Shown: positions 1 through 64,000 of the stretch, piece after piece
How the letters are laid out: each line of letters begins with the position of its first letter
Numbering within the stretch: the stretch's first letter is position 1
DNA from: a virus
DNA length: 64,000 nt
Direction: 5' to 3' (one strand)
Virus record (IMG/VR): IMGVR_UViG_3300029822_000007
Coordinates: 31-64,030 of that record
Notes under the pieces: model-generated
Seen by the model: only the letters and a program-made list of their open reading frames with translations
Database searches by the model: none
What the model was told of the DNA's origin: nothing
Position numbers and translations under genes: made by a program

Positions 1-105
1 CCAGTATGCTGTTATAATTTGGTCAGTGTACTGGTGGTTTTCAACATATGGCAACCCGCCATTTACATCATTAATATACATATCATTTTGTCCTACTGGT
101 ATTAA
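1..105. repeat. 105-bp exact direct repeat, copy 1 (identical to 58637-58741)
   Basis: Base-by-base comparison: ccagtatgct...ggtattaa is identical, then diverges (cctag vs gccct). Confidence 0.95.
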
Positions 106-702
106 CCTAGTGCAGAAATCATGTGTATCTTGTTTAATATTTAGGGCAACTAAATTAAGTTTATCATTAAAAAATGTACCCTTGCTGGTACCCATACTAT
201 TTAAAAAGTTTACAATCTTATTCTTAGCATCAAACTGTAAATCACACATATACGTTTCAGCTAATTTCTTTAATATATCCAATGCAGTTGAATTAGTCAT
301 TGCCAAACTTCTTAATTTAGTAACATTGGTATTAACTGTCCAACCACTACCAATCAGGGCATTATTTGCTATTTCTGTAATGAGTACATTTGTTCTCGTA
401 AACGCATTGTTATATAAACATTTTAAAGCTTCTGTATCAACCTCGCATTCAACTGCAATTAAATTATCAGAACCCGGGTTTACTTCTTTAATCACATATA
501 CTTGGTCAGCTGTTAAAATATGATTTTGTGTTTTTATAACATCAACCATAGTATCTTTTACTTCTTCTGCACCCACTACATTAAACATAGCATAGTTAAA
601 TTCTAGAGTATCAGTTCCAGTTATATCCCTTGTTCTTTTAATATCTTGGGCGGAAGGTAAAACCCCCAACTGAGCATAATTTGCATCTGCAATTATTAAC
701 AT
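1..702 (-). CDS. Tail-associated (Tal/endopeptidase-type) tail protein 1, N-terminal 234 aa, running off the window edge; absent from the ORF track
   Basis: My translation: ATG at 702 with GAGGAGG RBS, open to base 1 (MLIIADANYAQLGVLPS...DFCTRLIPVGQNDMY...TAYW). Paralogous to the N-terminus of 58877..61996 (LGVLP, DTLEFNY, TRLIPVG). Confidence 0.9.
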   Translation of the reverse strand, partial: MLIIADANYAQLGVLPSAQDIKRTRDITGTDTLEFNYAMFNVVGAEEVKDTMVDVIKTQNHILTADQVYVIKEVNPGSDNLIAVECEVDTEALKCLYNNAFTRTNVLITEIANNALIGSGWTVNTNVTKLRSLAMTNSTALDILKKLAETYMCDLQFDAKNKIVNFLNSMGTSKGTFFNDKLNLVALNIKQDTHDFCTRLIPVGQNDMYINDVNGGLPYVENHQYTDQIITAYW

Positions 703-731: not shown

Positions 732-1121
732 CTAAAAATCTTCAATCATGAATTTTAATGCGTCTAATTCGGCACCACTTAAAGTTGCATTGCCTAGGAT
801 TTCTAATTTAAATTGCATTAAATTTAGCTCAATCTCAATATTTAGTAATTTATCAATTTCTTCATTACAACCTTTTACATCATCTATTAATGGCAAACCA
901 GTATTTTTATCACATACTGGCTCACCTTTATCATCTTTTTTAGCAAACTTATTTCTAACCTTGCCAACTACCTTATTAAATGGCACTAATGCATCATTAA
1001 TTGCTTCCACATTTTTAGTTATTGCATATGAAGCCATCACTGGCAATTTCTCCTGCAATACCATTCCTAATATTTTAGTTCTATTTAATAAATATTTATT
1101 TGTTACTTTTACTTTTTTCAT
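732..1121 (-). CDS. Hypothetical tail-module protein, paralog of 62032..62436
   Basis: Lies between Dit and Tal; shares the C-terminal L..LKFMI.DF motif with its paralog. Confidence 0.7.
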   Translation of the reverse strand: MKKVKVTNKYLLNRTKILGMVLQEKLPVMASYAITKNVEAINDALVPFNKVVGKVRNKFAKKDDKGEPVCDKNTGLPLIDDVKGCNEEIDKLLNIEIELNLMQFKLEILGNATLSGAELDALKFMIEDF

Positions 1122-1141
1122 ATTATTAACCTCCTAAAAAA

Positions 1142-1396
1142 TTATCGTATTGTTACATCTAATGTTGCATTTATCTTTGCATTTACTTGTGCTACAAAAT
1201 CATCAAGAGCTGTTTTTACAAGTGCCGCATTGGCTTTTATTGTATCAGTTTGGTCATCTTGAAATCTTACACCTATATCAAAATTATTGTTTCGTATAGT
1301 TGCATTTACATTTCCAACTGTCACTTCTTTGGTAGCACCTTCTGCACCAGTAGTAATTGTTATTGGTCCATTTATTGATACACTTTCATTAAACAT
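1142..1396 (-). CDS. Hypothetical tail-module protein (84 aa), paralog of 62439..62693
   Basis: Same length and NNFDI motif as its paralog; GGAGG RBS. Confidence 0.7.
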   Translation of the reverse strand: MFNESVSINGPITITTGAEGATKEVTVGNVNATIRNNNFDIGVRFQDDQTDTIKANAALVKTALDDFVAQVNAKINATLDVTIR

Positions 1397-1414
1397 ATAA
1401 ATTCCTCCTAATTT

Positions 1415-2251
1415 TTATACATATCTAGGTTTATAACTTGTAGTTACTTCTAATGTTATATCATGTTCATCTGACATAACTGCATATGGGTTAACATTAA
1501 TTGCAATTGATTCACCACTGCGTTTCACCGGTAATACTGGAAAATCACCATTAAATTTGAGTGGTGTTACAACATTATTTCTATAGGTTTTAAATGTTTC
1601 AGTATCAACCTCGGCAGTATCACCATTATTTAAACCTATAAAAGTAAATTGATTTGTTACAAAAGAATCTAAAATATTAAATGTGCCGGGTTTATTAATA
1701 CCAAAATAAAATCCAGTATCTGTGGTTAGCCCTGATACTACTCTAGCATTAATATTTAAAGGTGAGGCAACATTACCCTGTGGCACCACTGTTATTGCTT
1801 GTGGTATTGTACTATTAAATACCAGGGTATCTGTTTGTGATACCACTGGTAAATAACCATAACCACTACTTAAAGTATACTTCACTAAATATAAATAATT
1901 ATTACCATCAATATTAGTATCCGGGTCACCATACCACGTAACTTCCGGGTCACCATTTAGTATTACATCATACAAAAATTGAGCATCATTAAATTGTATA
2001 GTTGCATTACTTAATTCTTTTGTAATATTACTGATGCTAATTAAAGCATCAGTTTTAGTTAAACCATGTACCAGCAATGATACTGTTAATGGTCTTTCTT
2101 TAAAAAGCAATGAAGTAATTAGAGGGGAAGGTGCCAGCCTTGACCAATATGAAGTATATTCAGCTTTATTGGTACCAAACGTATACTCTATTAAATCTGC
2201 ATTTAAATCTAATATACTTTTATCATTTATTGTCATACTTAAATCTGCCAT
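1415..2251 (-). CDS. Distal tail protein (Dit) 1
   Basis: Directly follows the TMP; siphovirus Dit-like size and ends (GDFP, YKPRY.). Confidence 0.75.
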   Translation of the reverse strand: MADLSMTINDKSILDLNADLIEYTFGTNKAEYTSYWSRLAPSPLITSLLFKERPLTVSLLVHGLTKTDALISISNITKELSNATIQFNDAQFLYDVILNGDPEVTWYGDPDTNIDGNNYLYLVKYTLSSGYGYLPVVSQTDTLVFNSTIPQAITVVPQGNVASPLNINARVVSGLTTDTGFYFGINKPGTFNILDSFVTNQFTFIGLNNGDTAEVDTETFKTYRNNVVTPLKFNGDFPVLPVKRSGESIAINVNPYAVMSDEHDITLEVTTSYKPRYV

Positions 2252-5200
2252 TATTTCCTCCTCCTTACATTACCATTAATCTTTCTTGATATTTCAGTAG
2301 ATAAATAATCAATTGATTCCCTATCTGTAAAGGCATATTTGCCATCAAGGTGTAATTCAACTTTGGCAGGGGTACCACCAGTAGTATTTAAACTATCCTG
2401 TGCTTTCTTCACTAAATTTAAATTATTATCACCTATTACATTATTTGCATTTTCAAAAACATTACTTATGCCACTAACACCAGCTTGTACGCCAGTTACT
2501 AATCCTTGTAGAGTATTTAAAACAGAAGTCATATTCGTAACTAAATTATTAGTTTGCATATTACTTAAAACTGTTTCTCCTCCTCTGAACCATTTTAACG
2601 CATTTCCCAGTACAACCTCAAGTCCTTTTTCACCTACTGCATGTGCTCCCGGGGTTGCATTATTTGTTCCGGTTGCATAACCAACATAATTTCCACTAAA
2701 TAAATGTGGTATATTATATGGGCTACCATATCTAGCTTTAATATAATTTAAGGCTGACATTATATTGTCAATGGGGTTCATTATATTACCATGTCCACTA
2801 GCCGCATAACTGTTAAAAGTAGAACCTAACATCTGCATTAATCCAGTGGCATGTTCTCCTCCCACTGCCTGACTATTAACAGATAATGGGTTACCACCTG
2901 ATTCTTTCTGTACTAAAGTTTGCAATGCTGGCAACCATGCTAGAGGCTTTCCTGATTGTGCTAATGCAGTTGTAAGCCATGCACCTACTTTGGCACTACC
3001 AACAATACCATGTGCAAAATTAATAGCACCACCGAATACTTTCTGTACTACTGCCTTAATATGTCCGGCACCACTCAGCAGAGCATTTTCAAGCCCTTTA
3101 ATTAAATATCCACCCATTGCATAGGTTTGTTTGGATGGTGAAGCAATACCAAATACTTTCTTCATACCAGTTAATAAATCCTTGGCTAATTTTTTAGCAA
3201 AAGCTACAACTTTACCTCCAATAGCCTTTAAACCATTCCATAAACCTTGCATGATATCCTTACCAATATTTACAAAGTTTTTAGGGAAATTTTTAAACCA
3301 GTTAACTAAACCATTCCACATCTTTTTAATTCCAGCAACTGCCCCAGTTAATAAACTGATTGCACCATTCTTAAAAAAGCTAAATATATTTCTACCCGTA
3401 TTAGCAAATACTGTAGGCATACTTCTAAAGAAATTAACAACCCCATTCCACAAAGCCTTTATACCAGCAACAGCATTAGTTAAAAGAGATATAGCCCCGT
3501 TTTTAAAGAAGTTAAATATACTCTTACCTATATTAGCCATTACACCCGGGAAAGCTTTAAAGAACGCTACTAACCCATTCCATATAGATTTAATTCCCCC
3601 TACTAAACCATTCCATACTGCAAGCCCAGCAACCTTCATTGCATTCCATATCGCAAGACTTACTGCCTTTATACCATTCCAAACACCAGCAAAAAAATTA
3701 CCAATTGCAGAAAATGCAGTTTTAATTCCAGTTACTGCCGCTGTCCAACCTGTAGATATCCCAGCAATTGCAACATGCACACCGGATTTTATACCATTCC
3801 AGATTCCACTAAAAAATCCAGTAATACCGCTCCACGCACTCATAATAGTATTTTTAGCACTTGTAAATATTCCAGTAACAACCGCCCATACCTTTTTAAA
3901 ATACGGTGCTAACTTATCCCAATTTTTATATATAATTAATGCCGCTATGGCAATCCCATATATAGCAATCATTACTGGATTAGCCCCTAAAGTTAAAACA
4001 TTAAATGCTTTACCAATTCCACTTATAGCAGTAGATACAGCTTTTACATCCTTAACTATAGTAAAGGCTTGATGTATACTTTGCATCGCTTTAACTGTTT
4101 TAGCAAATATTAATAATGCAGGTCCAATTGCCGCTACTACTCCACCTACTGCAACTATAAATGTTTGCGAAGCTGGTGACATCCTATTAAAAGCCTTTAC
4201 TAAATTACCTAAATGGTCAGTAATACTTCTTATAGCAGGTGTCATAGTTTTACCTATCGCAGTAGCCGCTGATTCCAATGAACCCTTTAAACCTTCTATC
4301 GAACCTTTCAAGTTATCTTGGTTAGTTTTTGCCGCCGCTTTAGCCGCACCATCTGAGTTTTTGAGTTCTTTAGTTAAGCCTTTTAATTTATCTTGACCAT
4401 CACCAATTAATACTTGCATACCACTTAAAGCATCAGAACCAAATATGGTTGATAACGTTAATGCTTTTTGTTGCTGAGTCATCCCTTTAGTAGAAGATTG
4501 TAATTTACCTATAATTTCATTTAGTGGCAACATTTTTCCATTAGTATCAAAAGCACTAAATCCAATCTGTTTCATAAGTCCAGCCGCTTGTTTAGATGGG
4601 TTAGACAAACTATTTAATGCACTTCTTAATGTAGTACCAGCCTGTGAACCCTGTATACCTTGGTTAGCCATTTCACCAATCGCCGCTGTAACTTCTTCCA
4701 TACTCATACCAGCAGTATGAGCAATTGGTGCCACATATTTCATAGCTTCACCGGTACTGGCAACACTTGCATTTGTTGCATTAGCGTTCTTTGCTAATAC
4801 ATCTGCAACATGTCCAGCCTGTGAAGCCGCTAAGCCAAATCCTCTCAATGTAGTAGCCGCTATATCTGAACTTGTTGCCAAATCCTCTCCTGAAGCCGCC
4901 GCTAAGTTCATCATACCCGGCATAGCACTAGTAATTTCATTTACTGAGAAACCAGCAGAGGCTAGGTTTTCCATACCTTCAGCCGCTTCACTAGCACTAA
5001 AAGATGTGGAAGCACCCAAATCAATAGCCTGTTTTCTTAATGTCTCCATTTGTGAACCTGATGCTCCTGCAACAGATTGAACTCTACTCATTTGTGCATC
5101 AAAGTCGCTTGACATCTTTATTGCCGCCGCTCCAACACCCACAATAGGTAGGGTTACATGTTTAGCTAAAGAAGCTCCAACAGTATTTGCCGCACTTCCT

Positions 5201-5340
5201 AATGCTGTTATACGTTTGCCAGTACTTTCACTTCCATTGGCAAATGTTTTTAAATCATTCTGAGCTGATTGTAGGGAGGCTTTGAATGGGCTTGTAGATA
5301 ATGCCAATGTTGCCATTATTGTTCCAGCACTTAATGCCAT
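2251..5340 (-). CDS. Tape measure protein with C-terminal lytic transglycosylase (SLT) domain
   Basis: 1029 aa, Ala/Gly-rich TP901-type core, W/F-periodic repeats; ESGGNP...ATGLMQ lysozyme-like motif. Confidence 0.95.
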   Translation of the reverse strand: MALSAGTIMATLALSTSPFKASLQSAQNDLKTFANGSESTGKRITALGSAANTVGASLAKHVTLPIVGVGAAAIKMSSDFDAQMSRVQSVAGASGSQMETLRKQAIDLGASTSFSASEAAEGMENLASAGFSVNEITSAMPGMMNLAAASGEDLATSSDIAATTLRGFGLAASQAGHVADVLAKNANATNASVASTGEAMKYVAPIAHTAGMSMEEVTAAIGEMANQGIQGSQAGTTLRSALNSLSNPSKQAAGLMKQIGFSAFDTNGKMLPLNEIIGKLQSSTKGMTQQQKALTLSTIFGSDALSGMQVLIGDGQDKLKGLTKELKNSDGAAKAAAKTNQDNLKGSIEGLKGSLESAATAIGKTMTPAIRSITDHLGNLVKAFNRMSPASQTFIVAVGGVVAAIGPALLIFAKTVKAMQSIHQAFTIVKDVKAVSTAISGIGKAFNVLTLGANPVMIAIYGIAIAALIIYKNWDKLAPYFKKVWAVVTGIFTSAKNTIMSAWSGITGFFSGIWNGIKSGVHVAIAGISTGWTAAVTGIKTAFSAIGNFFAGVWNGIKAVSLAIWNAMKVAGLAVWNGLVGGIKSIWNGLVAFFKAFPGVMANIGKSIFNFFKNGAISLLTNAVAGIKALWNGVVNFFRSMPTVFANTGRNIFSFFKNGAISLLTGAVAGIKKMWNGLVNWFKNFPKNFVNIGKDIMQGLWNGLKAIGGKVVAFAKKLAKDLLTGMKKVFGIASPSKQTYAMGGYLIKGLENALLSGAGHIKAVVQKVFGGAINFAHGIVGSAKVGAWLTTALAQSGKPLAWLPALQTLVQKESGGNPLSVNSQAVGGEHATGLMQMLGSTFNSYAASGHGNIMNPIDNIMSALNYIKARYGSPYNIPHLFSGNYVGYATGTNNATPGAHAVGEKGLEVVLGNALKWFRGGETVLSNMQTNNLVTNMTSVLNTLQGLVTGVQAGVSGISNVFENANNVIGDNNLNLVKKAQDSLNTTGGTPAKVELHLDGKYAFTDRESIDYLSTEISRKINGNVRRRK

Positions 5341-7617: not shown

Positions 7618-7630
7618 ACATATCTCCTCC

Positions 7631-11458: not shown

Positions 11459-11459
11459 A

Positions 11460-12104: not shown

Positions 12105-12131
12105 TAAAAAATAAGCCTCAATGGGCTTATT
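12105..12131 (-). terminator. Rho-independent terminator
   Basis: AATAAGCC...GGCTTATT followed by a T-run on the minus strand. Confidence 0.7.
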
Positions 12132-12525: not shown

Positions 12526-12527
12526 AT

Positions 12528-12674
12528 TTACCCCTCCTTAATACTTTTGTTTACCTTTTTCAATGTTCGTGCGAGTAGCTTGCAATAAAATTCTGCATCT
12601 GCATAATCTTCATTTAATAATTTTTGCTCAATAATGTAGGCATATTCTTTCATTGCTTTATTTAGCTCCTCCAT
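12528..12674 (-). CDS. Small hypothetical protein (48 aa, MEELNKAMKEY...), not in the ORF track
   Basis: GGGAGG RBS directly downstream of the early promoter at 12703-12731. Confidence 0.65.
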   Translation of the reverse strand: MEELNKAMKEYAYIIEQKLLNEDYADAEFYCKLLARTLKKVNKSIKEG

Positions 12675-12702
12675 ACTTTAACCTCCCTCACTTGTTGATA
12701 TT

Positions 12703-12731
12703 ATTATATAACATTATTATATAATATGCAA
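12703..12731 (-). promoter_or_regulatory. Early sigmaA-type promoter E1
   Basis: TTGCAT-17-TATAAT. Confidence 0.85.
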
Positions 12732-12754
12732 GGGTTTTTATAAAATTATTTAAA

Positions 12755-13783: not shown

Positions 13784-13784
13784 A

Positions 13785-14081
13785 CTAATCCTCCTTAAAC
13801 ATCTTTGGGTTATCTTTAACCACCTGATATAATCCTTTGCCTAGCTTAACAACCTGCTCCTCTGTTAAACCTATATCAAACATATCATCAATACCATGAA
13901 CTACTTCATGCACCAGTACGCATTTTTGTAGTTCTCTATCCACTGTACCATCTATACTAATTTTGCCAGTATCACATCCAATGGTGCCATAGCAAACCTC
14001 ATTATCATCTACAATTTGATGATTGTATATATCAACTAAATAATCCATAAAGCCCAGTTTTACACATTTAGGTATTCTCAT
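13785..14081 (-). CDS. Small HExxH metallopeptidase-like protein
   Basis: CVLVHEVVHGI. Confidence 0.55.
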   Translation of the reverse strand: MRIPKCVKLGFMDYLVDIYNHQIVDDNEVCYGTIGCDTGKISIDGTVDRELQKCVLVHEVVHGIDDMFDIGLTEEQVVKLGKGLYQVVKDNPKMFKED

Positions 14082-14085
14082 AACA

Positions 14086-15675: not shown

Positions 15676-15689
15676 CTATAACATCTCCT

Positions 15690-16022
15690 TTAAATTATAT
15701 CATTTCTAATTAAAAACCCATCAATGTCTAATTCAACATCAAGTATTGTGCCACCCTTGGGTCTTATTATTCTAGTCACAATGTTTTTGGGTGTTATATA
15801 TTCAAGGCAGTCTTTATACTGAAACATACAACTTATAAATTCACCATCTTTAAAATGCGGCACAAATAAATCTTTGGTACCCAGTATATTAGGGCAACCA
15901 TTTTCAGGTTTAGGTATTACACCTTTAAATATTTCTGCCAATTCTTCTTTAGTGGTATATTTAGTAAGCACTAAAAAATCTGCCTTTACTTGTTGGTCTT
16001 TATTAAAACATTTTCGTATCAT
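15690..16022 (-). CDS. Hypothetical protein
   Basis: ORF with GGAGG RBS between terminase and portal. Confidence 0.65.
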   Translation of the reverse strand: MIRKCFNKDQQVKADFLVLTKYTTKEELAEIFKGVIPKPENGCPNILGTKDLFVPHFKDGEFISCMFQYKDCLEYITPKNIVTRIIRPKGGTILDVELDIDGFLIRNDII

Positions 16023-16033
16023 AATAATCCCTC

Positions 16034-17452: not shown

Positions 17453-17987
17453 TAACTACCTTTAAGAAATTGCTCTGTGCTGGTATATTATCATAGCCGC
17501 CATTTGCCTTTTCCTTCTCTAAATTAACTTTCTGCTGTGCAATCTTAACCTTCATTAATTCTACTTCATCTTCTAGTCCACTACTTAGCCTTTGTCCATT
17601 TTGTATCTTTTCTAGTATAGCCGCTAAATGTTCCATCTTGTTTATATTATAGCCGGGAACTTCTTTATAGGTTAAATATAAATTTGGGTTATCTAAAATA
17701 CTGGTAACAACATTAAGAAGTTTTTCCCATGCTTTATAATGCTTTATATTTACTTCCCTTTTCTTAATAGCTAAACTCTTATCTAGCTTATCGCATTTCT
17801 CCTTCTTTAGTGTTGCCTGCATTTCATTTTTAGCCAAACGCCATTTATTTTTATTAGCAATCCTTTGTACATTCTGAGCGGTCATATTATATCGCTTTGC
17901 CAAATCCTCATATGTGCAATTACTGTTAATGTACTCTAGCTTCATTCTTGCATTCCTTTGGTCTATTTTCTGCTGTTTGTTCATCAT
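17400..17987 (-). CDS. terS: Terminase small subunit
   Basis: N-terminal HTH (TYEDLAKRYNMT...W), directly upstream of terL. Confidence 0.8.
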   Translation of the reverse strand: MMNKQQKIDQRNARMKLEYINSNCTYEDLAKRYNMTAQNVQRIANKNKWRLAKNEMQATLKKEKCDKLDKSLAIKKREVNIKHYKAWEKLLNVVTSILDNPNLYLTYKEVPGYNINKMEHLAAILEKIQNGQRLSSGLEDEVELMKVKIAQQKVNLEKEKANGGYDNIPAQSNFLKVVNESVDKIWSGKNEEKEN

Positions 17988-18022
17988 TAAACGCTCCTTT
18001 CTGTATCTAAATATATGCTAAC

Positions 18023-18119
18023 CACTATATGTTGTGGTCACCCTTAATAAAACCCCTTGATTTTTGCCGCCTTTTAAACATTCTATACTACATGTTGTGG
18101 TTCACCCCTAAATATTGTG
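18023..18119. promoter_or_regulatory. Three NrdR-box-like semi-palindromes upstream of terS
   Basis: CACTATATGTTGTG (18023), TACTACATGTTGTG (18086), CCCTAAATATTGTG (18106) versus consensus caCwAtATaTwGtg. Confidence 0.45.
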
Positions 18120-18200
18120 GTAAATTCCACGTTATTATATAATGTTATATAGTTAAGGCACCAAATGTTAGCGAAACCCCGGATATTTGGCTATGAAACA

Positions 18201-18545
18201 TTAAAACCTATTGTTATAATACCCCCTTTTCTTGCCTTTCTGTACCCTAACATCTATTAATGCCTGCACCTTTGCCTTATAATCCTCATCACTTGCAACC
18301 CTAATTAAGCTTTGCAAGAAGTAAAATGATGTTCTTTTGGGTATCTTTTTATGCCTTATACAATATATAACTCTTATGCAAGCTGAATAATTTCTTAGGT
18401 GCGAATGCCCTTCTTTGAACGCCTTGTTATTATTATATACTATAAATCCATCTCCTGCTCGAAGTATTGAAAAACCTTGCTTGTCATATATTTTAGTTGC
18501 CACAAAAACGCCCCCTTTTCCTAAATAAATCATACCATAAATCAA
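18201..18545 (-). CDS. Hypothetical protein (likely start GTG, VATKIYD, near 18503)
   Basis: ORF track; AAGGGGG RBS before the GTG. Confidence 0.65.
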   Translation of the reverse strand: MIYGMIYLGKGGVFVATKIYDKQGFSILRAGDGFIVYNNNKAFKEGHSHLRNYSACIRVIYCIRHKKIPKRTSFYFLQSLIRVASDEDYKAKVQALIDVRVQKGKKRGYYNNRF

Positions 18546-18957
18546 GTCAGGTCACAACAAAAATATTCAGATCGGCTCTCAAAAATAGCTATCTCCATCT
18601 GTAATATTGAATAGTTATGTATACAATTATAGTTATAATACAATCATAAATAAATAGTTTAATATGCTCTCTATACTACTAATACTAATCACTCTATATC
18701 TATTTCTTCTATCTCTCTTTATTATCAAGGGCTGTCGCATTCTCCGCCGCCGGATTTTTCGGGTGCCAAACCTACTAAATTAATGTCAATTTTATACTGA
18801 AAATTAAGCGTGCTTTCTGTGTACTTTCACGATTGTTGAATTCTTCATGTAAATGAATAATTTTATTAAAAAATATTTTAAAATCTATATAGGGAATATA
18901 TCTTAGGTTACATACATGTATATAGTTTTAACTATTAAATTATATTGTTTAGGATAA

Positions 18958-18979
18958 ATAAAAGGCTGACTTTTCAGCC
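18958..18979 (-). terminator. Terminator closing the early/middle small-gene region
   Basis: GGCTGA-4-TCAGCC followed by TTTT on the minus strand. Confidence 0.65.
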
Positions 18980-18995
18980 AACCCCTCTAAATCTT

Positions 18996-19226
18996 TTATA
19001 CATTTTTTATTGTTACAAAACCTTGTTTAAATTCATCTAACATTAATCTATCTGTTTTAACCTTTCCCAATCTTTCATCTATAGTTACAACTGTTATATA
19101 AAAAGGTGTTGCATCTAAAATTAATGCATCTCGCCACATGGTATTTGTACGATATTTATATTTAACTGGCTTACCAACTGGAAAAGCCTCTATATTTATT
19201 ATTGTATCAGTTTTTAATATTTCCAT
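18996..19226 (-). CDS. Hypothetical protein
   Basis: ORF track, RBS. Confidence 0.6.
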   Translation of the reverse strand: MEILKTDTIINIEAFPVGKPVKYKYRTNTMWRDALILDATPFYITVVTIDERLGKVKTDRLMLDEFKQGFVTIKNV

Positions 19227-19496
19227 TTTTTATTTCCCCTTTACTAAAACATACTTGTTTCCATTTGTATTATCATGCACACCTACAACTTTTATGCCCT
19301 TATAATCAAGTGGTATTAATGCAACATTAAATTTAGTACATAAATCATTTATTAGATTTACAACTGTATTTATTTCCTCTTGTCTATTTTCCATTTTTAC
19401 CTCTCCCCATTACATAATATTAGTAATGCGGCAAACAATCCACCACAAAAGAACCCTACTACAAACCACACAAAACCCATCATCTTATTACCTCCA

Positions 19497-19787
19497 TTAA
19501 CATGTGGGTCTATCCCACGTTATTATTAAATTCCTTTTTATTTCATCATGGGTAATATTAAATCCCTCATGCACCAGCCACCTCATAATTTGTATTAATG
19601 ATTTGCCGCTGTAATTATCTAATAAATCACACTTTATAGTTACTGCAAATTCTCCTTCCCTTGCACTAAATAATATACGCCTTTGTATTTCTTTTCTTAA
19701 TGTACCACTCTTTTTATCCTGTGCAATTAACATTGCTCGGTATGCAAGTGGTCTAAAATTTGAATTATCCATTTTTACTACTTCCAA
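19497..19787 (-). CDS. Hypothetical protein
   Basis: ORF track. Confidence 0.6.
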   Translation of the reverse strand: MEVVKMDNSNFRPLAYRAMLIAQDKKSGTLRKEIQRRILFSAREGEFAVTIKCDLLDNYSGKSLIQIMRWLVHEGFNITHDEIKRNLIITWDRPTC

Positions 19788-20029
19788 TCTATTATTATTC
19801 TAAGCTTTTCATCCCTATTATTAACTACTAGACGCCTTTCTGACTCAATTTTAAACCCCCTATTAGTAAAATATGCAACTATTACTTTTTCTACATCTCT
19901 ATCTATATTATAATCTTCCCATGTAAATTCGAAAGACCCATTTTTAGTCTTAAACTTAATACTATCCCCTATATCTTTAATAATTGCACGTATTGCTTTC
20001 TTTTTAGCCTTATTTTTATTTAGCCACAT
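19778..20029 (-). CDS. Hypothetical protein
   Basis: ORF track, GGAGG RBS. Confidence 0.6.
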   Translation of the reverse strand: MWLNKNKAKKKAIRAIIKDIGDSIKFKTKNGSFEFTWEDYNIDRDVEKVIVAYFTNRGFKIESERRLVVNNRDEKLRIIIDWK

Positions 20030-20097
20030 TTAAATAACCTCCTCATCTATATAATAAAATTCTGCTGTATTAATAAAAGACTGTAATCCCTTTGCAC

Positions 20098-20361
20098 CTA
20101 AAAAACCACATACATGTTGCAGTAATGTATTTCATTTTGTCTAATTTTATTCCATTTATGCAACCCAAAAACTAAATCATCTACTACTATTCCTTTAAAC
20201 ATTGCATGACAACCTGTACCATTTACTAGGTCAAACTCACTCTTACGTATTAAATGACTATAATTATTTACAGCAATTGTTACTGTTTTAGGCGTTTCTT
20301 TTATAACTTTTAAAGGTTGTACCAATAAACTATTATCAGTTTCATAAATCCAATAATACAT
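20098..20361 (-). CDS. Hypothetical protein
   Basis: ORF track, AGGAGG RBS. Confidence 0.6.
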   Translation of the reverse strand: MYYWIYETDNSLLVQPLKVIKETPKTVTIAVNNYSHLIRKSEFDLVNGTGCHAMFKGIVVDDLVFGLHKWNKIRQNEIHYCNMYVVF

Positions 20362-23755: not shown

Positions 23756-24940
23756 TTACTCCTCTTCTGTTTGCCCTACAATTATTTTATTTATTTGCAC
23801 ATTTATCTTATTATAAATATCCTTGTTTGTACGTAACAATTCCAAAAGTGGTATTCTACCCTGCACCCTTGCATCATTACCATCTTTATCCTTTATATAC
23901 TCACCGGTACTAATATCTATAATATCAAACCAACTACCACGTTGATTTATAATATTATAATTTAATGCCAACTCTAAAACATCTGCCGCTATATCTATAC
24001 CAGTTTCATAGTTTAATGTATACATACCGGTACGCCTGTCCGGTTTACATATTTTAGTTTTAACTACTTCTACATTAACAAAGTTGCCGCATGGTTCATC
24101 TGCTTTATTATTAGCCAACTCTGCTGTATCTTTATCAAAGAATTTACCTTTCCTAAAAAACAATCTAACTGCATATAAATGTTTTACAGCCCTGCCACCC
24201 GGCGTCTTATATTTATTATATGGATTAGCTAAATCATCACGCATTTGATTAATCATTATTAAAGTACATTTATTTTTGGTTAGCAATGCAGGTGCCTCTC
24301 CGGAAAATCGTGCCAGTGGTAATGCTATGCCGCCATAAGCCTTTTTTTCTAATGTTTCCTCCATTAATTGTTGTGGTATTAGCATTGGCACACTATCTAA
24401 AACTGCCATACAAATATCTCCAGTTGCCACACAATCTAGTATAATCTGCAATATTTGTTCGGCAGTTTCAGTCTGTGGTCGTACTAAATATAATGAATTC
24501 AAATCAACACCCAGTTTTGTAGCCCAATCCTCATCTAATGTTTGTTCAGCATCTACATACAAAACACTTCTAATGCCTTGCTCCTGTACCTCTACCAACC
24601 TTTTTTCTAATTTTGTTATATCTTTTGAAGCTTGCTTACTATTAGATTCTTTAAGCTTTGCAATTTGTTCAGTTAAATCATTTATAGTATCATTATATTC
24701 ATTTGTTGCTTTATGCTGTGCATTTTTAACTGCATCTAATGCAGTGGTAGTTTTTCCACTACCTTCCCCACCAAAGAATTCGACGGCTTTGCCTACTGGT
24801 AAGCCGCCATACAACAAATAATTCAAATGTGGGGAGCTAAATGGTATTCTATCAACATAAATCATGTTTGTACCCTTTGTAATGATAGTGCTACCATATT
24901 TCTTATTTATAGTTCCCATTAAAACATCTAAATTATTCAA
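23756..24940 (-). CDS. recA: RecA-family recombinase with coiled-coil insertion
   Basis: GGEGSGKTT, VDAEQTLD, VLDSV, INQMR, TPGGRAVK. Confidence 0.95.
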   Translation of the reverse strand: MNNLDVLMGTINKKYGSTIITKGTNMIYVDRIPFSSPHLNYLLYGGLPVGKAVEFFGGEGSGKTTTALDAVKNAQHKATNEYNDTINDLTEQIAKLKESNSKQASKDITKLEKRLVEVQEQGIRSVLYVDAEQTLDEDWATKLGVDLNSLYLVRPQTETAEQILQIILDCVATGDICMAVLDSVPMLIPQQLMEETLEKKAYGGIALPLARFSGEAPALLTKNKCTLIMINQMRDDLANPYNKYKTPGGRAVKHLYAVRLFFRKGKFFDKDTAELANNKADEPCGNFVNVEVVKTKICKPDRRTGMYTLNYETGIDIAADVLELALNYNIINQRGSWFDIIDISTGEYIKDKDGNDARVQGRIPLLELLRTNKDIYNKINVQINKIIVGQTEEE

Positions 24941-56231: not shown

Positions 56232-56262
56232 AATATCACCACCTTCGGACTACACTAATAAA

Positions 56263-56289
56263 AATAAAGGAGGCTTGCCCTCCTTTATT
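56263..56289. terminator. Hairpin between tail gene and holin
   Basis: AATAAAGGAGG-5-CCTCCTTTATT. Confidence 0.6.
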
Positions 56290-56347
56290 CATTATAATAT
56301 ATTATGCAAAAATGATAAATCCTTAATTTATTAACTGTTTATAAAAT

Positions 56348-58834
56348 TTAATAAAAATAAGCATAACCATTAAATGTTGCTCCACCACCACTGTAACAAT
56401 AAATTCTAGTGTGGTTTACATCGGTATCTTGTGTAGTAACAATTAAGTTACCAACTGTTCCATTCAATCTAACTATTGGGTGATATCCTAAATTGTGTGC
56501 AATTGTCACTGAACTTCCTGTTGGTATACTGACAGACTGTGTGTATACTGGCGTTTTACCTAAACCAAAATATTTATCAGCTGATATTGTTCCAGCACTT
56601 CCAATACTACCTCCGCCCATCATGATGTTATTTCCATTCATCCACAGATAATCATAGAAGTCTATATAACTACTATTAACTTCAACCTTACCATTTACTA
56701 AATTAACATTACTACTAACTACTAAAGAATCTGTACTTATTGAACCACTACCACTTCCGGAGCCTCCACTACCATAAACAATTAAATTACCATTAAGCAC
56801 AATATTATCATTAAATATACTATTTCCCCAAACAGTAAAATTACTACCTAATATTTGTGCCTTATATATATCAACATGTCCATTCAAAGTATCAGAGGGT
56901 TGTATAGCACCTATCGTTATAGTACCATCATCATCTGTATCTGTCCTAGATATTAAATGCTTACCAAACATTTGTATCAGTGGTAATGTATTTGCACCAT
57001 ATACCATATATCCTAAACTAATCATTTCACTTGAATTTTGGTATATGGATATTTGCTGGTCATGCAATGTTAAATAGTTTGTAGTATTATTAGTTTTTAA
57101 TGTAGTACCAATAATATCTACACCAGTAATTGTGCCACCACTTATTCTATCACCGCTTAATTCGCCAGTAGTAATTGAACTAGCATCTAAATTAACAACG
57201 CTTATCTGTGCCGCATCTAATGTTCCTGTAGTAATCTTACTAGCATCTATAGAAGCAATGATGCCGGAGTTTGCAGTAATAGTATTAGTAGCTATTTCAT
57301 TTGCAGTAATAGCATTGGCTACAACTTTATCGGCAGTAATAGTTCTATCCGTTAATGCCTCACCATTAATAGTTGTTTGACTTAGTGTCTGTGTAGCCCC
57401 GGGCAAATTATTTATTTCATAAACAATACTTTCATCGCTACCTCTAATAATTAATCTATCTACAGATAATGTTCCTGCTGTAATACTATTAGCACTTAAA
57501 TCAACAACCTTTGCATCTGTAATACTACTATCTGCTATTTGTGCAGTACCTATGGCAGAAGTAGCTATGATGCCACTATCAGCTGTAATTGTGCCAGCAA
57601 CCAATTGGTCTGCTACAATTGTATGGGCTTTTATAAGTGTACCATCTAATTCGCCTGTGGTTATATTAGTCGCATTTAGTTTAATTACATCAATTAAACT
57701 TGCATCAATTGTGCCACCGCTTATCCTATCAGCACTAAATGTCCCAGTAGTTATAGCACTTGCATCTAAATTAATTACTGCTATCTGTCCTGCATCAATA
57801 GTTCCACCTGAAATTCTATCAGCACTAAAAGTTCCTGTGGTAATACTACCTGCATCCAAATTAACCACAGAGACTTGTGAAGCATCAATAGTTCCTGTTG
57901 TTATATTACCTGCATCTAAGTTAGTTACATCAATCACACTAGCATCTATAGCTCCAGAAGTGATATTACTAGCATTAAGATTGGTAACACCAATAACATG
58001 TGCATCTATTGTACCGCCGCTAATATTACTGGCATTCAAATTAGTTACTGTAATAACCCCAGCGTCTATGGTACCAGCGGTTAATTTATCTGCACTTAAT
58101 GAATTAACCTTTTCATTAGTAACCTGCAAATCACCGATTTTGGCTGTAGTTATTGTACTATCTGCTACCTTTTCAGTAGTTACAGCTAAATCAGATATTT
58201 GTGCAGTTTGTACTTGCACATTTTTAACTTTAGTCCAATCAATACTATCAACTGCATCACCGCTAACACTACCACCATCAGTTGTTGTAATTGAATCTAC
58301 AGTTTCAGTTGTGTGTAATGATTTTTCAAATAAATCTTCCATTAATTGATACATACTATCAAACTGCACAGTATTTTGCTCCGGTTTATCCATATATTCT
58401 ACTGTTTGTATTATACGCACAGTTTGTCCAATTTCTTTCTTTGAATCCATTATAGTTACTGTATCACCAATATTGTAGCTTAATTCTGAAAAATCTTCAA
58501 AGTCTGGATTAAGTTCAGATATTCTAGCTAAATCTAAAACAGTTGCATCGAACGTGACCTGTGGCTGTGATAATATTGCTAATTTAGCTACCGCATCTTC
58601 TTTAAGTGCATTTGCATCAGTATATTGACCAGCCGACCAGTATGCTGTTATAATTTGGTCAGTGTACTGGTGGTTTTCAACATATGGCAACCCGCCATTT
58701 ACATCATTAATATACATATCATTTTGTCCTACTGGTATTAAGCCCTCTTTAGGTATCGGCATCAGACGTACTTTATTACCTTCTGGTGTTATGATTAACT
58801 GACCACTTTCTGCTATTTCTCTTAATTTTGACAT
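56348..58834 (-). CDS. Tail protein 1 C-terminal 797 aa (10-aa beta-helix-like repeats + tip domain) fused to 31 unrelated residues
   Basis: From LIPVGQ onward it continues the frame of 1..702; repeats (L/I)xAxxIxxGT; HNLGYHPIV tip. Confidence 0.85.
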   Translation of the reverse strand: MSKLREIAESGQLIITPEGNKVRLMPIPKEGLIPVGQNDMYINDVNGGLPYVENHQYTDQIITAYWSAGQYTDANALKEDAVAKLAILSQPQVTFDATVLDLARISELNPDFEDFSELSYNIGDTVTIMDSKKEIGQTVRIIQTVEYMDKPEQNTVQFDSMYQLMEDLFEKSLHTTETVDSITTTDGGSVSGDAVDSIDWTKVKNVQVQTAQISDLAVTTEKVADSTITTAKIGDLQVTNEKVNSLSADKLTAGTIDAGVITVTNLNASNISGGTIDAHVIGVTNLNASNITSGAIDASVIDVTNLDAGNITTGTIDASQVSVVNLDAGSITTGTFSADRISGGTIDAGQIAVINLDASAITTGTFSADRISGGTIDASLIDVIKLNATNITTGELDGTLIKAHTIVADQLVAGTITADSGIIATSAIGTAQIADSSITDAKVVDLSANSITAGTLSVDRLIIRGSDESIVYEINNLPGATQTLSQTTINGEALTDRTITADKVVANAITANEIATNTITANSGIIASIDASKITTGTLDAAQISVVNLDASSITTGELSGDRISGGTITGVDIIGTTLKTNNTTNYLTLHDQQISIYQNSSEMISLGYMVYGANTLPLIQMFGKHLISRTDTDDDGTITIGAIQPSDTLNGHVDIYKAQILGSNFTVWGNSIFNDNIVLNGNLIVYGSGGSGSGSGSISTDSLVVSSNVNLVNGKVEVNSSYIDFYDYLWMNGNNIMMGGGSIGSAGTISADKYFGLGKTPVYTQSVSIPTGSSVTIAHNLGYHPIVRLNGTVGNLIVTTQDTDVNHTRIYCYSGGGATFNGYAYFY
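58637..58741. repeat. 105-bp exact direct repeat, copy 2
   Basis: Identical to 1-105. Confidence 0.95.
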
Positions 58835-58862
58835 TAAACCATTTCCAATTATATTTATCTGA

Positions 58863-58894
58863 ACTGTTAGTTTATACTAATATAAACTAACAGT
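58863..58894. repeat. Perfect 14-bp inverted repeat with 4-nt loop containing the stop codon of tail protein 2
   Basis: ACTGTTAGTTTATA-ctaa-TATAAACTAACAGT. Confidence 0.9.
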
Positions 58895-61800
58895 ACCAGT
58901 CCAAAGATTACCTCCATTATTGTAATTTTTTACAGTAGTTTGATTAGTATTATTATGATATACAGTTAATATTATATTACCCGTAGACCCCGTAAATTGC
59001 ACTATAGGCATATAACCTAAATTATGCACTATAGTATGCGTATCACCATTATTTAAAGTACCTGACCATGTAGCTACAGGATATCTACCTAAACCTTGAT
59101 AATGTGCATTAGTTATAATTCCATTTTGTGCATTTAATGTTCCGCCATTCATATTTATATCATAACCATTCATAAAAAGGTTTCTATAAATATCAATATA
59201 CGAATTAGTTATTATATATGCTCCGTCGTAAATATTAATATCATTTTTAAATTGTACTGGGGATATAAAAGTAACATAACCACTACCAAACGCTGAAGCC
59301 TTAATAAGATCCAATTGTGCTACAATACCATTAGCAGAACTTAAAATTAAAACATCAGCATACAGTTCGGCTTCATTATACATCATACGTATAGTAGGTG
59401 GAGGTGTTGCAGCACTAGATTCAGTTCCACCACCGAATATAGAAATAGCCGGTAAGCCACGAAAAGCATTGTAGGCATAAAAATTATTACCAAAAAGAGT
59501 AACTCCACCTGCACCTACACCCGTATAAACCCTCCCCGCATTTATTACCGGTGCAAATATATAACCCGTATTCAAATTAATAGTTCCCTGAGCACCATTA
59601 CCAGCATCATAGTAACCTAACTTCATGACTTGTGTTGCATCCTGAAATATCTCCAAATATTGTTCATGAATCATTATATAATTATTTGTATTAGATGTTT
59701 TTAACAATGCCCCCGTAATTGTACCGCCAGAAATTATATCACCACTAATAGTACCACTCGTAATATTATTTGCATGTAAATTAATAACATCCACCACATC
59801 AGCGTCTATAGTACCTGTAGTTATTTTATTAGCATCTATAGAAGCAATAATACCATTAGAAGCCGTTATAGTGTTTGCTGCAATTTCATTTGCTGTAATA
59901 GTTTTAGCAAATATTTCATTAGCAGTTATAGTATGTGCTACAACTTTATCAGCTGTTACTGTTCTATCAGTTAAAGTTTCGCCATTAATAGTAGTATAAC
60001 CTACTACCTGTGTAGCTCCAGGTATATTATTTAATTCATAAACAATACTTTCATCGCTACCCCGAATAATCAATCTATCCACGCTTAATGTACCCGCAGT
60101 AATACTATTAGCACTTAAATCTACAACTTTAGCATCAGTGATACTACCATCAGCTATTTGTGCCGAACCTATGGCGGAATTCGCAATGATACCACTTTCT
60201 GCCGTAATAGTTCCACTAACCAACTGGTTCGCTACAATGGAATGTGCCTTTATATAGGTACCATCTAACTCACCTGCGGTGATGTTACCTGCATTCAGAT
60301 GGATAACATCAATCGTTGATGCATCAATTGTACCACCGCTTATACGGTCAGCACTAAACGTACCAGTGGTTATAGCGGATGCATCCAGTTTTACGACCGT
60401 TATTTTGGAAGCATCTAACGTTCCGCCAAATATTCTATCCGCAGTGAAAGTACCGGTAGATATCGATGAAGCATCTAAATTAATAACATCGATATATTGT
60501 GCGTCTAGTGTCCCCCCAGAAATTCTATTTGCAGATAAACTACCTGCAGTAATATTGCCTGCATTTAAATTAATAACACTAATAATGTTAGCATCTATAG
60601 TACCACCAGAAATGTTATCAGCATTAAGATTGAATACATGGATTATATCTGCATCAATAGAACCTGTAATAAGATTACTTGCATTTAGATTGATGACATT
60701 AATTATATTGGCATTGATGGTGCCCGCAGTTAGTTTATCGGCGCCTAATGAATCAACTTTTTCATTAGTAACTTGCAAATCGCCTATCTTTGCCGTGGTT
60801 ATTGTACTATCTGCTACTTTCTCAGTGGTAACTTGTAAATCACCTATTTGAGCAGTTTGTATTTGTACATTTTTTACTTTAGTCCAATCAATACTATCAA
60901 CTGAATCACCACTTACGTCACCGGTAGCTGTAGTTATATTTTGTAATTCTTGGTCTACTGCGGTGATAAGTTCAAAGTAATCTTCCATTAAATCATATTG
61001 GGATTCTAATTGAACTGTATTTTTATCTGGTTCATCCGGATACGAAACTGTTTGAACTATCCTAACTTGTCGTAATGTTTTTGATTGTCTATCACGTATA
61101 GTTATGGTATCCCCTAAATTATAAACATATTCACTATAATCAATATTATTAGTTAAACCTAATTCACTAAGTCTTGCTAAATCTAATACTGTACAATCGA
61201 TAGAAATTTTAGGTTGAGATAATATTGCTAACTTCTTAATAGCATCTTCTTTAAGGGCATTAGCATCTGTATATTGATTAGCTGACCAAAACTGTGTTAT
61301 ATTTTGATTTGTATATTGGTGGTTTTCTACATAATTTATACCGTTATTTATATCTGTAATATAAAGATTATTCGCCCCTACTGGAATTAAACGTGTCACT
61401 AAATCGTTAGTATCATATTTAACTTGAATATTTAATAAGTTAAATTTATCATCAAAGATAACACCAGCAAAATGGGGATTAAGCACCTCATTAAGATATA
61501 TAATTTTATTTTTAGCGTCAAAACGTAATTCAGTCATAAAGATTTCTGCAATTTTTTTAATTATATCTAGCGCAGTAGACTGATTCATAGCTAGACTTCT
61601 AAGTTTAACAGTACTAACATTGGTTTGAAATGTCCAACCCGTGCCAGTAAGTGCATTAGTTGCTAAAGTATTTAGTTGTGCGTTAGGTCTTGAAAAGGAT
61701 AAATTAATAGCATTAGTAAGTTCATCTAAATATACTACAGCTTTTACAGATAATATACCATCAGCCGGTGTAACTTCTTTAATAACATATAGTTGCGTAT

Positions 61801-61996
61801 CAGTTTCAATAAAATATTGGGGCTTAATTTGCGGCCCCATAACTGTTTCTACTTCTTCCCCACTAGCATCTACAACATAGTAGGGATAATTAAATTCAAG
61901 AGTGTCATTACCTTTAGTATCTTCAGTTATATGAATATCTGAAGAATATGGTAATACACCTAAGGGAGCTCTACTATCACTGCTTAAAGCTAACAT
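58877..61996 (-). CDS. Tail protein 2 (complete Tal-type endopeptidase domain + repeats + tip)
   Basis: 1039 aa, colinear paralog of reconstituted tail protein 1; TRLIPVG, HNLGYMPIV. Confidence 0.9.
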   Translation of the reverse strand: MLALSSDSRAPLGVLPYSSDIHITEDTKGNDTLEFNYPYYVVDASGEEVETVMGPQIKPQYFIETDTQLYVIKEVTPADGILSVKAVVYLDELTNAINLSFSRPNAQLNTLATNALTGTGWTFQTNVSTVKLRSLAMNQSTALDIIKKIAEIFMTELRFDAKNKIIYLNEVLNPHFAGVIFDDKFNLLNIQVKYDTNDLVTRLIPVGANNLYITDINNGINYVENHQYTNQNITQFWSANQYTDANALKEDAIKKLAILSQPKISIDCTVLDLARLSELGLTNNIDYSEYVYNLGDTITIRDRQSKTLRQVRIVQTVSYPDEPDKNTVQLESQYDLMEDYFELITAVDQELQNITTATGDVSGDSVDSIDWTKVKNVQIQTAQIGDLQVTTEKVADSTITTAKIGDLQVTNEKVDSLGADKLTAGTINANIINVINLNASNLITGSIDADIIHVFNLNADNISGGTIDANIISVINLNAGNITAGSLSANRISGGTLDAQYIDVINLDASSISTGTFTADRIFGGTLDASKITVVKLDASAITTGTFSADRISGGTIDASTIDVIHLNAGNITAGELDGTYIKAHSIVANQLVSGTITAESGIIANSAIGSAQIADGSITDAKVVDLSANSITAGTLSVDRLIIRGSDESIVYELNNIPGATQVVGYTTINGETLTDRTVTADKVVAHTITANEIFAKTITANEIAANTITASNGIIASIDANKITTGTIDADVVDVINLHANNITSGTISGDIISGGTITGALLKTSNTNNYIMIHEQYLEIFQDATQVMKLGYYDAGNGAQGTINLNTGYIFAPVINAGRVYTGVGAGGVTLFGNNFYAYNAFRGLPAISIFGGGTESSAATPPPTIRMMYNEAELYADVLILSSANGIVAQLDLIKASAFGSGYVTFISPVQFKNDINIYDGAYIITNSYIDIYRNLFMNGYDINMNGGTLNAQNGIITNAHYQGLGRYPVATWSGTLNNGDTHTIVHNLGYMPIVQFTGSTGNIILTVYHNNTNQTTVKNYNNGGNLWTGTVSLY

Positions 61997-62031
61997 TATT
62001 TAATCCCCTCCCACAGGATGATAAACTATGA

Positions 62032-62436
62032 TTAAAAATCAGTTATCATAAATTTTAGCGACATTAGTTCTTGTGGTGTAAAGTCTGTTTGACCTAAATC
62101 ATCAAAGTTGATAACATAGACCTCAAGTGTATTTTCAATATCTAACAATTCATTAAGGTCTTTTGTGAATGATTCAGGTTCAGCAATAATTACACCACCT
62201 TTTTTATCTTTTACTATTACATTGTCATCATCACGTTTACCATATTTGTCAATTAATTTATTTCTTTCCTTATCAAATGCCTTTAATTCTTTATTAAGAA
62301 TATCAATATTTTTAGTTAAGGTATAACTAGTAATAATAGGTAATGATTTAGTAAGGACCGATTTTAAACTAGTCCCAATAGTCACCATTTCTCTATTAGC
62401 TAATGTCTTTTGTAATTTTTTTAATTTAGCTCCCAT
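62032..62436 (-). CDS. Hypothetical tail-module protein, paralog of 732..1121
   Basis: Shared motifs and position. Confidence 0.7.
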   Translation of the reverse strand: MGAKLKKLQKTLANREMVTIGTSLKSVLTKSLPIITSYTLTKNIDILNKELKAFDKERNKLIDKYGKRDDDNVIVKDKKGGVIIAEPESFTKDLNELLDIENTLEVYVINFDDLGQTDFTPQELMSLKFMITDF

Positions 62437-62438
62437 GA

Positions 62439-62693
62439 TTAAGCCTCCTTATTAAATACTGGATAAACAGCATTTACTTTAGTTTGTACAGCACTATAAA
62501 ATTCTTGGAATTGCGCTTTCACTGCATCAATATTTTGAAGGGCGGTATCTTTGTCCTCAAAATATACATTGATATCGAAATTATTATCAGACAAGGTAAA
62601 TCTCATATTACCTATATTTTTCTGTACAATTTTATCATCTACTGTTTGATTTATAATAATCGCACCTGTTATATTTGTTGATTCTTTTAACAT
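62439..62693 (-). CDS. Hypothetical tail-module protein, paralog of 1142..1396
   Basis: 84 aa, NNFDI motif. Confidence 0.7.
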   Translation of the reverse strand: MLKESTNITGAIIINQTVDDKIVQKNIGNMRFTLSDNNFDINVYFEDKDTALQNIDAVKAQFQEFYSAVQTKVNAVYPVFNKEA

Positions 62694-62714
62694 TTTATAT
62701 CCTCCTTTAAAACA

Positions 62715-63527
62715 TTAAAACCACCTAGGTTTATATAATATATCTACATGCGTGTTAATTGCTACTTCATCTGCAAAGATAGCTGAAAACTTAATATTTA
62801 ATTGCATAACTTTCGGGGCAGCTATAATAGGAAAATCGCCCCTAAATCTTGATAAATCAGGAACTGTATTTGCAAGTATTTTATAAGTTTCCGCATTGAC
62901 TTCAATAAGATCACCATTACCGACATCCATTAATGCAAATTGGTCTGTAACATAGTCATTTAATATTTCAAATACTGGGTCTTTATTAAAAGCTAAATAT
63001 ATTAAATGGTCAGTAGTTGCACCATTTAATATTTTAAATCTTACAATTAAAGGCGTAAATTCATTACCTATTGTAGTAAAATTAATTGTAGCTGCTTGTG
63101 ACGTATCTGTAAATGTAATATCTTGACCTATAGTAATAACACTTCCATAACCTCGCCCAGCCGTTAACGTAGCTTCTATAATATATCTACAGGTATCATA
63201 ACCTGTATCAGTATCACCATACCAAGTTATTGTAGGTTCATTAGTCATATATACATTAAATGATTGTCCTATATCTGTAAAACCTAAGCTACAGTTTACA
63301 AAATTCTTTAATAGATTACTAACTTTTTGTAATGTTAAATCTTTAGTAGTATCTTCTACTAAACACGTAACTTTAATTTCTTTTTCTTGTGCTTGTTGTT
63401 GTGCTATCAAAGGGTTAGCAGCTTTCTTATACCATTGTATTGCGTAATTAACCTTAGAAGGTCCAACAGAATAATCTACTAAGGTAATATCTGTTCTTGC
63501 AACCCCATTTATAATTAAATCAGCCAT
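62715..63527 (-). CDS. Distal tail protein (Dit) 2
   Basis: Paralog of 1415..2251 (TWYGD, GDFP, YKPRWF). Confidence 0.75.
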   Translation of the reverse strand: MADLIINGVARTDITLVDYSVGPSKVNYAIQWYKKAANPLIAQQQAQEKEIKVTCLVEDTTKDLTLQKVSNLLKNFVNCSLGFTDIGQSFNVYMTNEPTITWYGDTDTGYDTCRYIIEATLTAGRGYGSVITIGQDITFTDTSQAATINFTTIGNEFTPLIVRFKILNGATTDHLIYLAFNKDPVFEILNDYVTDQFALMDVGNGDLIEVNAETYKILANTVPDLSRFRGDFPIIAAPKVMQLNIKFSAIFADEVAINTHVDILYKPRWF

Positions 63528-64000
63528 TAGACCCTCCCCTTTGTTCTTCCTGCAATTGTTCTACTAATTCTTGTCGATAAATAATCAATAGCTTCCTTAT
63601 TAGTAAATGCATAATTGCCATTCAAATTAATATTTACCGGCATTGCAGCATTATTAGTTGATGCCATTTGAGTTTGAGTAGCTACATCCAAACCTTTAGC
63701 ATTTTGCATCACATTTTGTAAATTAGCAATAGTAGAAAGTAAATTTAAACTATCTTTGTTATTTAATACTGTTTCGCCGCCCTGAAATAATTTTAAAGCT
63801 TTGCCACCAACAATTTCAAGACCCTTCTCTGCAACAGCATGCATACCGCTCATAGCACTTTTAACACCATTAGCATAACCAACGTAATTACCCCCAAATA
63901 AATTAGGGATATTATATGGTGAACCGTAACGTGCTTTTATATAATTAATAGAAGACATTAAATTATCAATAGGATTAGTAATATTACCATGACCCCTAGC
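63527..64000 (-). CDS. Tape measure protein 2, C-terminal part (frame open to the window edge)
   Basis: [32 protein letters not shown]... aligns with the end of TMP 2251..5340. Confidence 0.85.

Follow-up and report, generated by a model that had tools for sequence, protein, structure and literature searches.

A repeated tail-gene segment in a 64-kb viral record: probable assembly self-overlap of a phiCTP1-like Clostridium phage genome joined to part of a second phage

The stretch of viral DNA analyzed here (the window, 64,000 nt in all) opens inside a tail gene, and the same stretch of that gene returns as an internal copy ahead of a 5.3-kb tail module at the right end. The question raised by this locus is whether the two copies of the repeated stretch lie on one molecule, where they would bracket a foreign tail module, or whether a single site was reached twice during assembly. 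We addressed it by comparing the two copies, the tail genes on either side of them, and the genomes of related phages.

The repeat and the split tail gene

A repeat search of the window showed that positions 1-105 are 100% identical to positions 58637-58741, just as a preliminary description of the window had claimed. An exact match of 105 nt in 64 kb cannot have arisen by chance. A third copy, with 70% identity, lies at window 61286-61390 within Tal2, the tail-tip gene of the right-end module; this homology is ordinary paralogy and no substrate for recombination.

The window corresponds to bases 31-64030 of a 64,070-bp IMG/VR record (contig position = window position + 30), for which the entry reads linear, without end repeats, and 100% complete. 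The preliminary description had suspected that the repeat was longer than 105 bp and cut by the window edge, and had raised the possibility that base 1 was a contig end. The 30 bases preceding the window indeed proved to be part of the repeat, which reaches the first base of the contig, and contig 1-135 matched contig 58637-58771 at 133 of 135 positions. The only two mismatches are adjacent, TT at contig 8-9 versus GC at window 58614-58615. Between the copies, the longest exact run is 126 nt (window 58616-58741); the nine contig bases that precede it comprise seven matching and two mismatched ones. Metagenome assemblers often use 127 as their largest k-mer, and the exact run equals 127 minus 1; since codon 200 and the Lys242 allele in any case lie this far apart, we attach no meaning to the agreement. 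The contig start shows no clean k-mer boundary, which counts against reading the repeat as an assembly self-overlap.

The tail genes at both contig ends are all on the minus strand (Table 1). The left-end open reading frame (ORF) starts at position 702 and runs off the contig; the window holds 234 of its residues, the whole contig 244. At the other end, the ORF at 56348-58834(-) specifies 828 aa, made up of 31 unique residues (MSKLRE...PKEG) followed by 797 residues of Tal1, and it is directly followed by the holin gene and then the endolysin gene. Joining the two Tal1 parts via the repeat gave an uninterrupted protein of 199+797 = 996 aa. The prediction that the join would yield one 996-aa tail protein was upheld: the length is that of phiCTP1 gp26, and the protein exists as P0005 in independent ENA assemblies. 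P0005 was identical to the left-end ORF at 244 of 244 residues, Lys242 included, and to residues 32-828 of the 828-aa ORF at 796 of 797, the sole difference being Lys242 versus Ala. This substitution is the TT/GC mismatch between the repeat copies. Since P0005 matches the left copy down to Lys242, that copy belongs to the independently assembled haplotype with intact Tal1, and the difference between the copies at codon 242 indicates two haplotypes. The allele difference fits two DNA populations rather than one molecule.

These large tail proteins have, according to Pfam, an N-terminal Prophage_tailD1 plus Prophage_tail unit, the siphophage tail-tip hub, and then gp58-like repeats. The hub is complete at the N terminus of both P0005 (PF18994 at 2-84, PF06605 at 109-335) and Tal2 (PF06605 at 115-338). 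In the 828-aa ORF it is incomplete, with profile positions 115-245 of 250 of Prophage_tail only; Tal1 residue 200 corresponds to about profile position 114, which places the junction in mid-domain. With D1 missing and the hub domain halved in its product, the 828-aa ORF is unlikely to provide a working tip protein. This form is recorded on this contig only.

Both Tal genes also contain repeat arrays with a 30/60/90-nt period (window 57075-58103 and 59754-60752). The arrays encode a motif that reads roughly ...NLDASxITTGTxSADRISGGTIDA... and match the Pfam gp58-like family, and they probably form the fiber shaft. Over their last 200-240 residues, at the C terminus, Tal1 and Tal2 showed no alignment at all, which suggests that the two proteins bind different receptors.

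Table 1. Positions of the tail features and repeat copies in the window
Feature	Window position	Strand	Remarks
Repeat, left copy	1..105 (contig 1-135)		Tal1 codons 200-244; Lys242 allele; reaches contig end
Tal1, 5' part (phiCTP1 gp26 homologue)	1..702	-	Prophage_tailD1 and first half of Prophage_tail; open at contig end
Resident tail-tip module (TMP, Dit, 84-aa gene, 129-aa gene)	732..5340	-	91-92% nt identity to phiCTP1 gp22-gp25
TMP (tape measure), 1029 aa	2251-5340	-	Resident module; Dit is 278 aa
Tal1 codons 200-996	56348..58741	-	80% nt identity to phiCTP1 gp26
Repeat, internal copy	58607..58741		Exact over 58616-58741; Ala242 allele from mismatches 58614-58615
31-codon leader (MSKLRE...PKEG)	58742..58834	-	In frame with Tal1 codon 200; weak RBS
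Tal2, complete tail-tip protein of second phage, 1039 aa	58877..61996	-	62% identity to Tal1 over about 800 aa
gp25 counterpart of second phage, 134 aa	62032-62436	-	
gp24 counterpart of second phage, 84 aa	62439-62693	-	
Dit/gp23 counterpart of second phage (Dit'), 270 aa	62715-63527	-	
TMP' C-terminal fragment, 170 aa	63527..64000	-	Frame open at contig end; full form P0026, 1117 aa

Circular collinearity with phiCTP1

The nearest isolates turned out to be Clostridium phage phiCTP1 (NC_014457, 59,199 bp) and vB_CtyS-FA88 (OR113388, 60.0 kb). The entire phiCTP1 record was compared with the contig by local blastn. Its positions 1-17906 aligned to contig 18060 down to 1, 17773-20179 to contig 58770 down to 56364, and 22206-59199 to contig 56384 down to 18061; the segment 17773-17906, inside gp26, aligned to both repeat copies. 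Contig 1-58771 thus covers all of phiCTP1 once, with the exception of gp27, and does so in one circular order. Along this in-order alignment the nucleotide identity was 85-96%, and gp27 was the only large gap. Joining the repeat copies gave a unit length of 58,636 bp. The preliminary description had closed a circle of this length through the repeat and had placed it near the roughly 59 kb of phiCTP1, and both statements agree with the collinearity all round and with the length of the isolate.

The gene order is the same as in phiCTP1 and FA88 over the whole map, with matching holin, endolysin, and replication genes. The tail genes agree as well: once the circle is closed, there is a single TMP-gp23-gp24-gp25-gp26 module with sizes of 1029/278/84/129/996 aa, the last being the tail-tip protein. 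What sets the contig apart from the phiCTP1 record is a circular permutation and, attached to one end, a 5.3-kb stretch from another phage. A further difference concerns gp27 (665 aa, with the CWB2 domain), which has no counterpart in the window. From this comparison, the phage, a siphovirus of the Clostridium tyrobutyricum type, is new to the phiCTP1 group but unremarkable within it.

Several features of the resident genome were observed along the way. The two ends of the phiCTP1 GenBank record (59199/1) are adjacent here, at contig 18061/18060 (window 18030-18031), which implies either that the phiCTP1-type genome is circularly permuted or that the record was linearized arbitrarily. At window 56232-56360, the stop context of Tal1 is followed immediately by what in phiCTP1 comes after the gp27 stop. 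The removal is clean, and the two gp27 breakpoints, being two stop contexts, have TTATTAAA in common; by virtue of these shared breakpoints, gp27 with its CWB2 cell-wall-binding repeats behaves as a cleanly removable cassette. In addition, a family of 42-78-nt motifs (TATTATATCA...AAAAATTAAAGT) is repeated upstream of replication genes within window 23290-49295, and it looks like a phage-specific promoter.

The second-phage module and its junction

The 5.3 kb at the right end parallels the resident tail-tip module gene for gene, in the same orientation and with about 70% nucleotide identity. Dit and the small genes (61997-64000 versus 703-2840) are roughly 50-70% identical and partly unalignable; they diverge more than the Tal shafts do. 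The tape measure fragment with which the contig ends (TMP') is 100% identical over its 170 residues to the C terminus of P0026, a protein found on a 9,779-nt contig. Compared with the resident TMP, P0026 is 52% identical along the whole length, with a length difference of 88 residues. A tape measure of 1117 aa, as against the resident 1029 aa, predicts a longer tail. Annotations in Clostridium luticellarii include relatives with about 70% identity, and for this reason the lineage of the module may come from temperate phages.

The same module genes occur elsewhere apart from the resident genome. Proteins nearly identical to Tal2 (P0007) and to Dit' (P0012) are both found on a 49,346-nt ENA contig. 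We looked up ten backbone proteins of the window (tube, capsid, portal, terminase, endolysin, helicase, polymerase, reductase, recombinase, and gp19) at 90% clustering, and none of them had a cluster member on that contig. An NCBI source is recorded for the proteins of the resident module and the backbone and not for the four complete proteins of the second module that we looked up (Tal2, 134-aa, 84-aa, and Dit'), a contrast that gives weak support to the two protein sets occurring apart. Queried against IMG/VR, JGI metagenomes, and GTDB genomes, Tal2 retrieved only a 2-kb contig with 56% identity, and TMP' retrieved relatives with 40% identity or less from IMG/VR. Within the contig, the longest exact word shared between positions 58772-64070 and the rest is 28 nt, which leaves the junction at window 58741/58742 as the only tie of the module to the remainder. 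These comparisons show window 58742-64000 to be an incomplete piece of a different phage, one that differs from the resident phage over its whole genome.

Two other accounts of this region were considered and rejected. A two-strain bubble, with the same backbone and the tail module swapped, does not agree with a TMP' that differs over its whole length or with a 49-kb contig devoid of the backbone clusters at 90%. Nor does the right end of the contig stop at a k-mer common with the resident TMP, since only 12 nt are shared there.

The leader, by which the module is joined to Tal1, follows the Tal2 stop after 42 nt and starts with an ATG preceded by a poor Shine-Dalgarno sequence; the earlier observation that 31 unrelated residues with a weak RBS open the 828-aa ORF was correct. 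Among proteins of 455-1449 aa the leader was not found. Shorter proteins gave one match, P0020 (31 aa), encoded on the 49-kb contig of the second phage, which equals the leader for 25 residues and then reads LYVQLE, a string absent from all six-frame translations of the contig, phiCTP1, and FA88. The final 18 nt of the leader (encoding PIPKEG) occur nowhere else in the window. An exact search of IMG/VR with the junction words, both leader-Tal1 and intact Tal1, returned no other record. The in-frame fusion and the 18 unique nucleotides imply that some real DNA of the sample carries the leader-Tal1 junction; other copies of the second phage are without it. The leader sits directly after a Tal stop, as gp27 does in phiCTP1, which gives a hint that it could be the start of a gp27-like gene. 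A local alignment of the leader with gp27 was not significant (p about 0.03 against shuffles), and a tblastn search with the leader in phages gave nothing.

A perfect 13-bp inverted repeat, CTGTTAGTTTATA / TATAAACTAACAG, is located close by at window 58864-58893, and its 4-nt loop holds the Tal2 stop (TAG). It is AT-rich and has no T-run, and we did not call it a terminator.

Explanations of the record and comparison with known systems

We consider it likely that both repeat copies are one and the same Tal1 site (codons 200-244), which the metagenome assembly reached twice. The start of the contig recurs at 133 of 135 positions, and the join restores the collinearity with gp26, which spans it, and the 58,636-bp unit. 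Arguing for this explanation are, further, the circular collinearity of phiCTP1 with contig 1-58771, the intact P0005 that matches both halves of Tal1, and the allele difference between the copies at codon 242. The module adds its own evidence: TMP' is open at the contig end, its full form P0026, only 52% identical to the resident TMP, is found elsewhere, Tal2 and Dit' lie on a 49,346-nt contig without the ten backbone clusters of the window, and the 5.3 kb are tied to the contig solely by the junction. The confinement of the 828-aa form to this contig, its start in mid-domain, and the IMG/VR class (linear, no end repeats) point the same way. We infer that the contig mixes two DNA populations.

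Under the self-overlap explanation, the true phage would be phiCTP1-like; its 58,636-bp map would be circular or circularly permuted, and its Tal1 would be intact at 996 aa. The assembly walk, followed in gene direction, would have begun in a fragment of the second phage, passing through the end of TMP', Dit', the two small genes, Tal2, and the 31-codon leader. It would then have crossed a single junction into Tal1 codon 200, circled the first phage once, and halted 135 bp after re-entering Tal1. The junction itself could stem from a natural illegitimate recombinant of co-occurring phages or from a chimeric molecule or assembly link.

The first of these sources leads to an explanation in which the record holds a natural hybrid co-assembled with its parent: a structural block of the second phage, breaking off 31 codons inside the gene next after Tal2, would have been joined illegitimately at Tal1 codon 200. 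Tal2 would then serve as the working tip, and the 828-aa ORF would be a relic. The repeat would still be an assembly overlap. We hold this explanation possible, though unlikely. The junction is in frame, and 18 unique nucleotides continue the leader across to it; it falls in the now-redundant Tal copy and at a dispensable position, given that the resident phage lacks gp27, and models of phage mosaicism predict that recombination scars survive in just such dispensable or redundant places. The Tal2 segment is, moreover, nearly identical to an independent 9.8-kb contig. Against this stand the occurrence of the 828-aa ORF on this contig only, the divergence of the leader after codon 25 on the 49-kb contig, the failure to see a second junction between the two phages, and the fact that a chimeric read or assembly link would give an identical picture. 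That the leader-Tal1 junction is a natural scar, left when a hybrid took the entire Tal2 tip block from a distinct Clostridium phage, is accordingly offered as a tentative proposal; the donated region would perhaps have been the whole structural arm. If true, the replacement of a host-range module would have been caught before deletion of the relic and beside the unrecombined parent.

The preliminary description proposed that the repeat copies, if real, bracket a foreign module in direct orientation, so that loss of the module would restore Tal1 and its retention would favor Tal2. Spelled out, this means a molecule of about 64 kb with the module between direct repeats of 105-135 bp and a UvsX/RecA-like excision that switches Tal2 to Tal1. 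The two forms are indeed present in databases: the 996-aa one as intact P0005, the 828-aa one on this contig, where Tal2 lies upstream of it. The length of the repeat would suffice for homologous recombination, and a UvsX-like recombinase is encoded in this phage family (window 23756-24940). The switch nevertheless fails on both of its premises. An excisable cassette calls for both copies and the cassette on one continuous molecule, and here the second flank is the end of the contig. The contig ends share no overlap, and by frame arithmetic a direct join would leave TMP' and Tal1 codon 244 in different reading frames. A cassette should also be a complete functional unit, yet this one is cut at TMP' residue 947 of 1117; it lacks 947 of the 1117 residues and holds the last 170 (15%), and the same sequence continues to a full gene elsewhere. 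In addition, the alleles of the two copies differ and correspond to haplotypes that were assembled separately, the excised circle would have no means of re-integration (no integrase is present), and 64 kb is 8% above phiCTP1 (59.2 kb) and 7% above FA88 (60.0 kb). An excision/integration tail switch is not supported, and we regard it as very improbable. Scarcely credible in our estimate is a larger genome of about 69 kb or more with tandem tail-tip modules, TMP-Dit-x-y-Tal1 and TMP'-Dit'-x'-y'-Tal2-truncated Tal1, in whose duplication the contig broke. The gene-for-gene paralogy of the right-end 5.3 kb to the resident module, at about 70% nucleotide identity and in the same orientation, is what such a duplication would leave. 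It would, however, add at least 10 kb to a phage type of 59-60 kb; phiCTP1 and FA88 have one module each, and the TMP' module lies on other contigs without the backbone of the window. We know of no precedent for a virion design with two tape measures that differ in length (1029 and 1117 aa).

The significance of the self-overlap explanation lies mainly in record quality, in that the best reading of the entry is a phiCTP1-like genome of 58,636 bp to which 5.3 kb from another phage are attached. Users who draw genome size, gene content, tail-protein inventories, or host range from the record would credit one phage with both tail modules and a truncated tip gene, which probably do not coexist. 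Should the junction be natural, it would represent a tidy, unsurprising exchange of a tail module between co-occurring phages of cheese-spoilage Clostridium.

Known systems share some features with this locus. The invertible segments of Mu (Gin) and P1 (Cin) and the diversity-generating retroelement of BPP-1 share with it the idea of an alternative tail tip only. The window has no invertase, integrase, or inverted repeats of the Gin and Cin kind, its repeat being a coding stretch seen twice, and it has no reverse transcriptase or template repeat such as those of BPP-1. Mosaic exchange of tail modules as described by Hendrix has in common with it related Dit-Tal modules, conserved shafts, different tips, and a junction in a dispensable region; swapping of Tal and receptor-binding proteins (RBP) occurs in lactococcal and streptococcal phages. 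The difference is that a single junction is visible here, and the residence of both modules in one genome is putative. The repeat itself behaves like the terminal overlaps that circular or permuted phage genomes leave in metagenome assemblies. A direct terminal repeat is a completeness criterion of CheckV and IMG/VR; in this record the second copy lies inside the contig, with 5.3 kb between it and the right end, because the walk is attached to foreign sequence, and the overlap is 133/135 and not exact, which explains why the record was classed as linear. As in such an overlap, the contig repeats its start, and joining the two copies restores both the split gene and the unit length.
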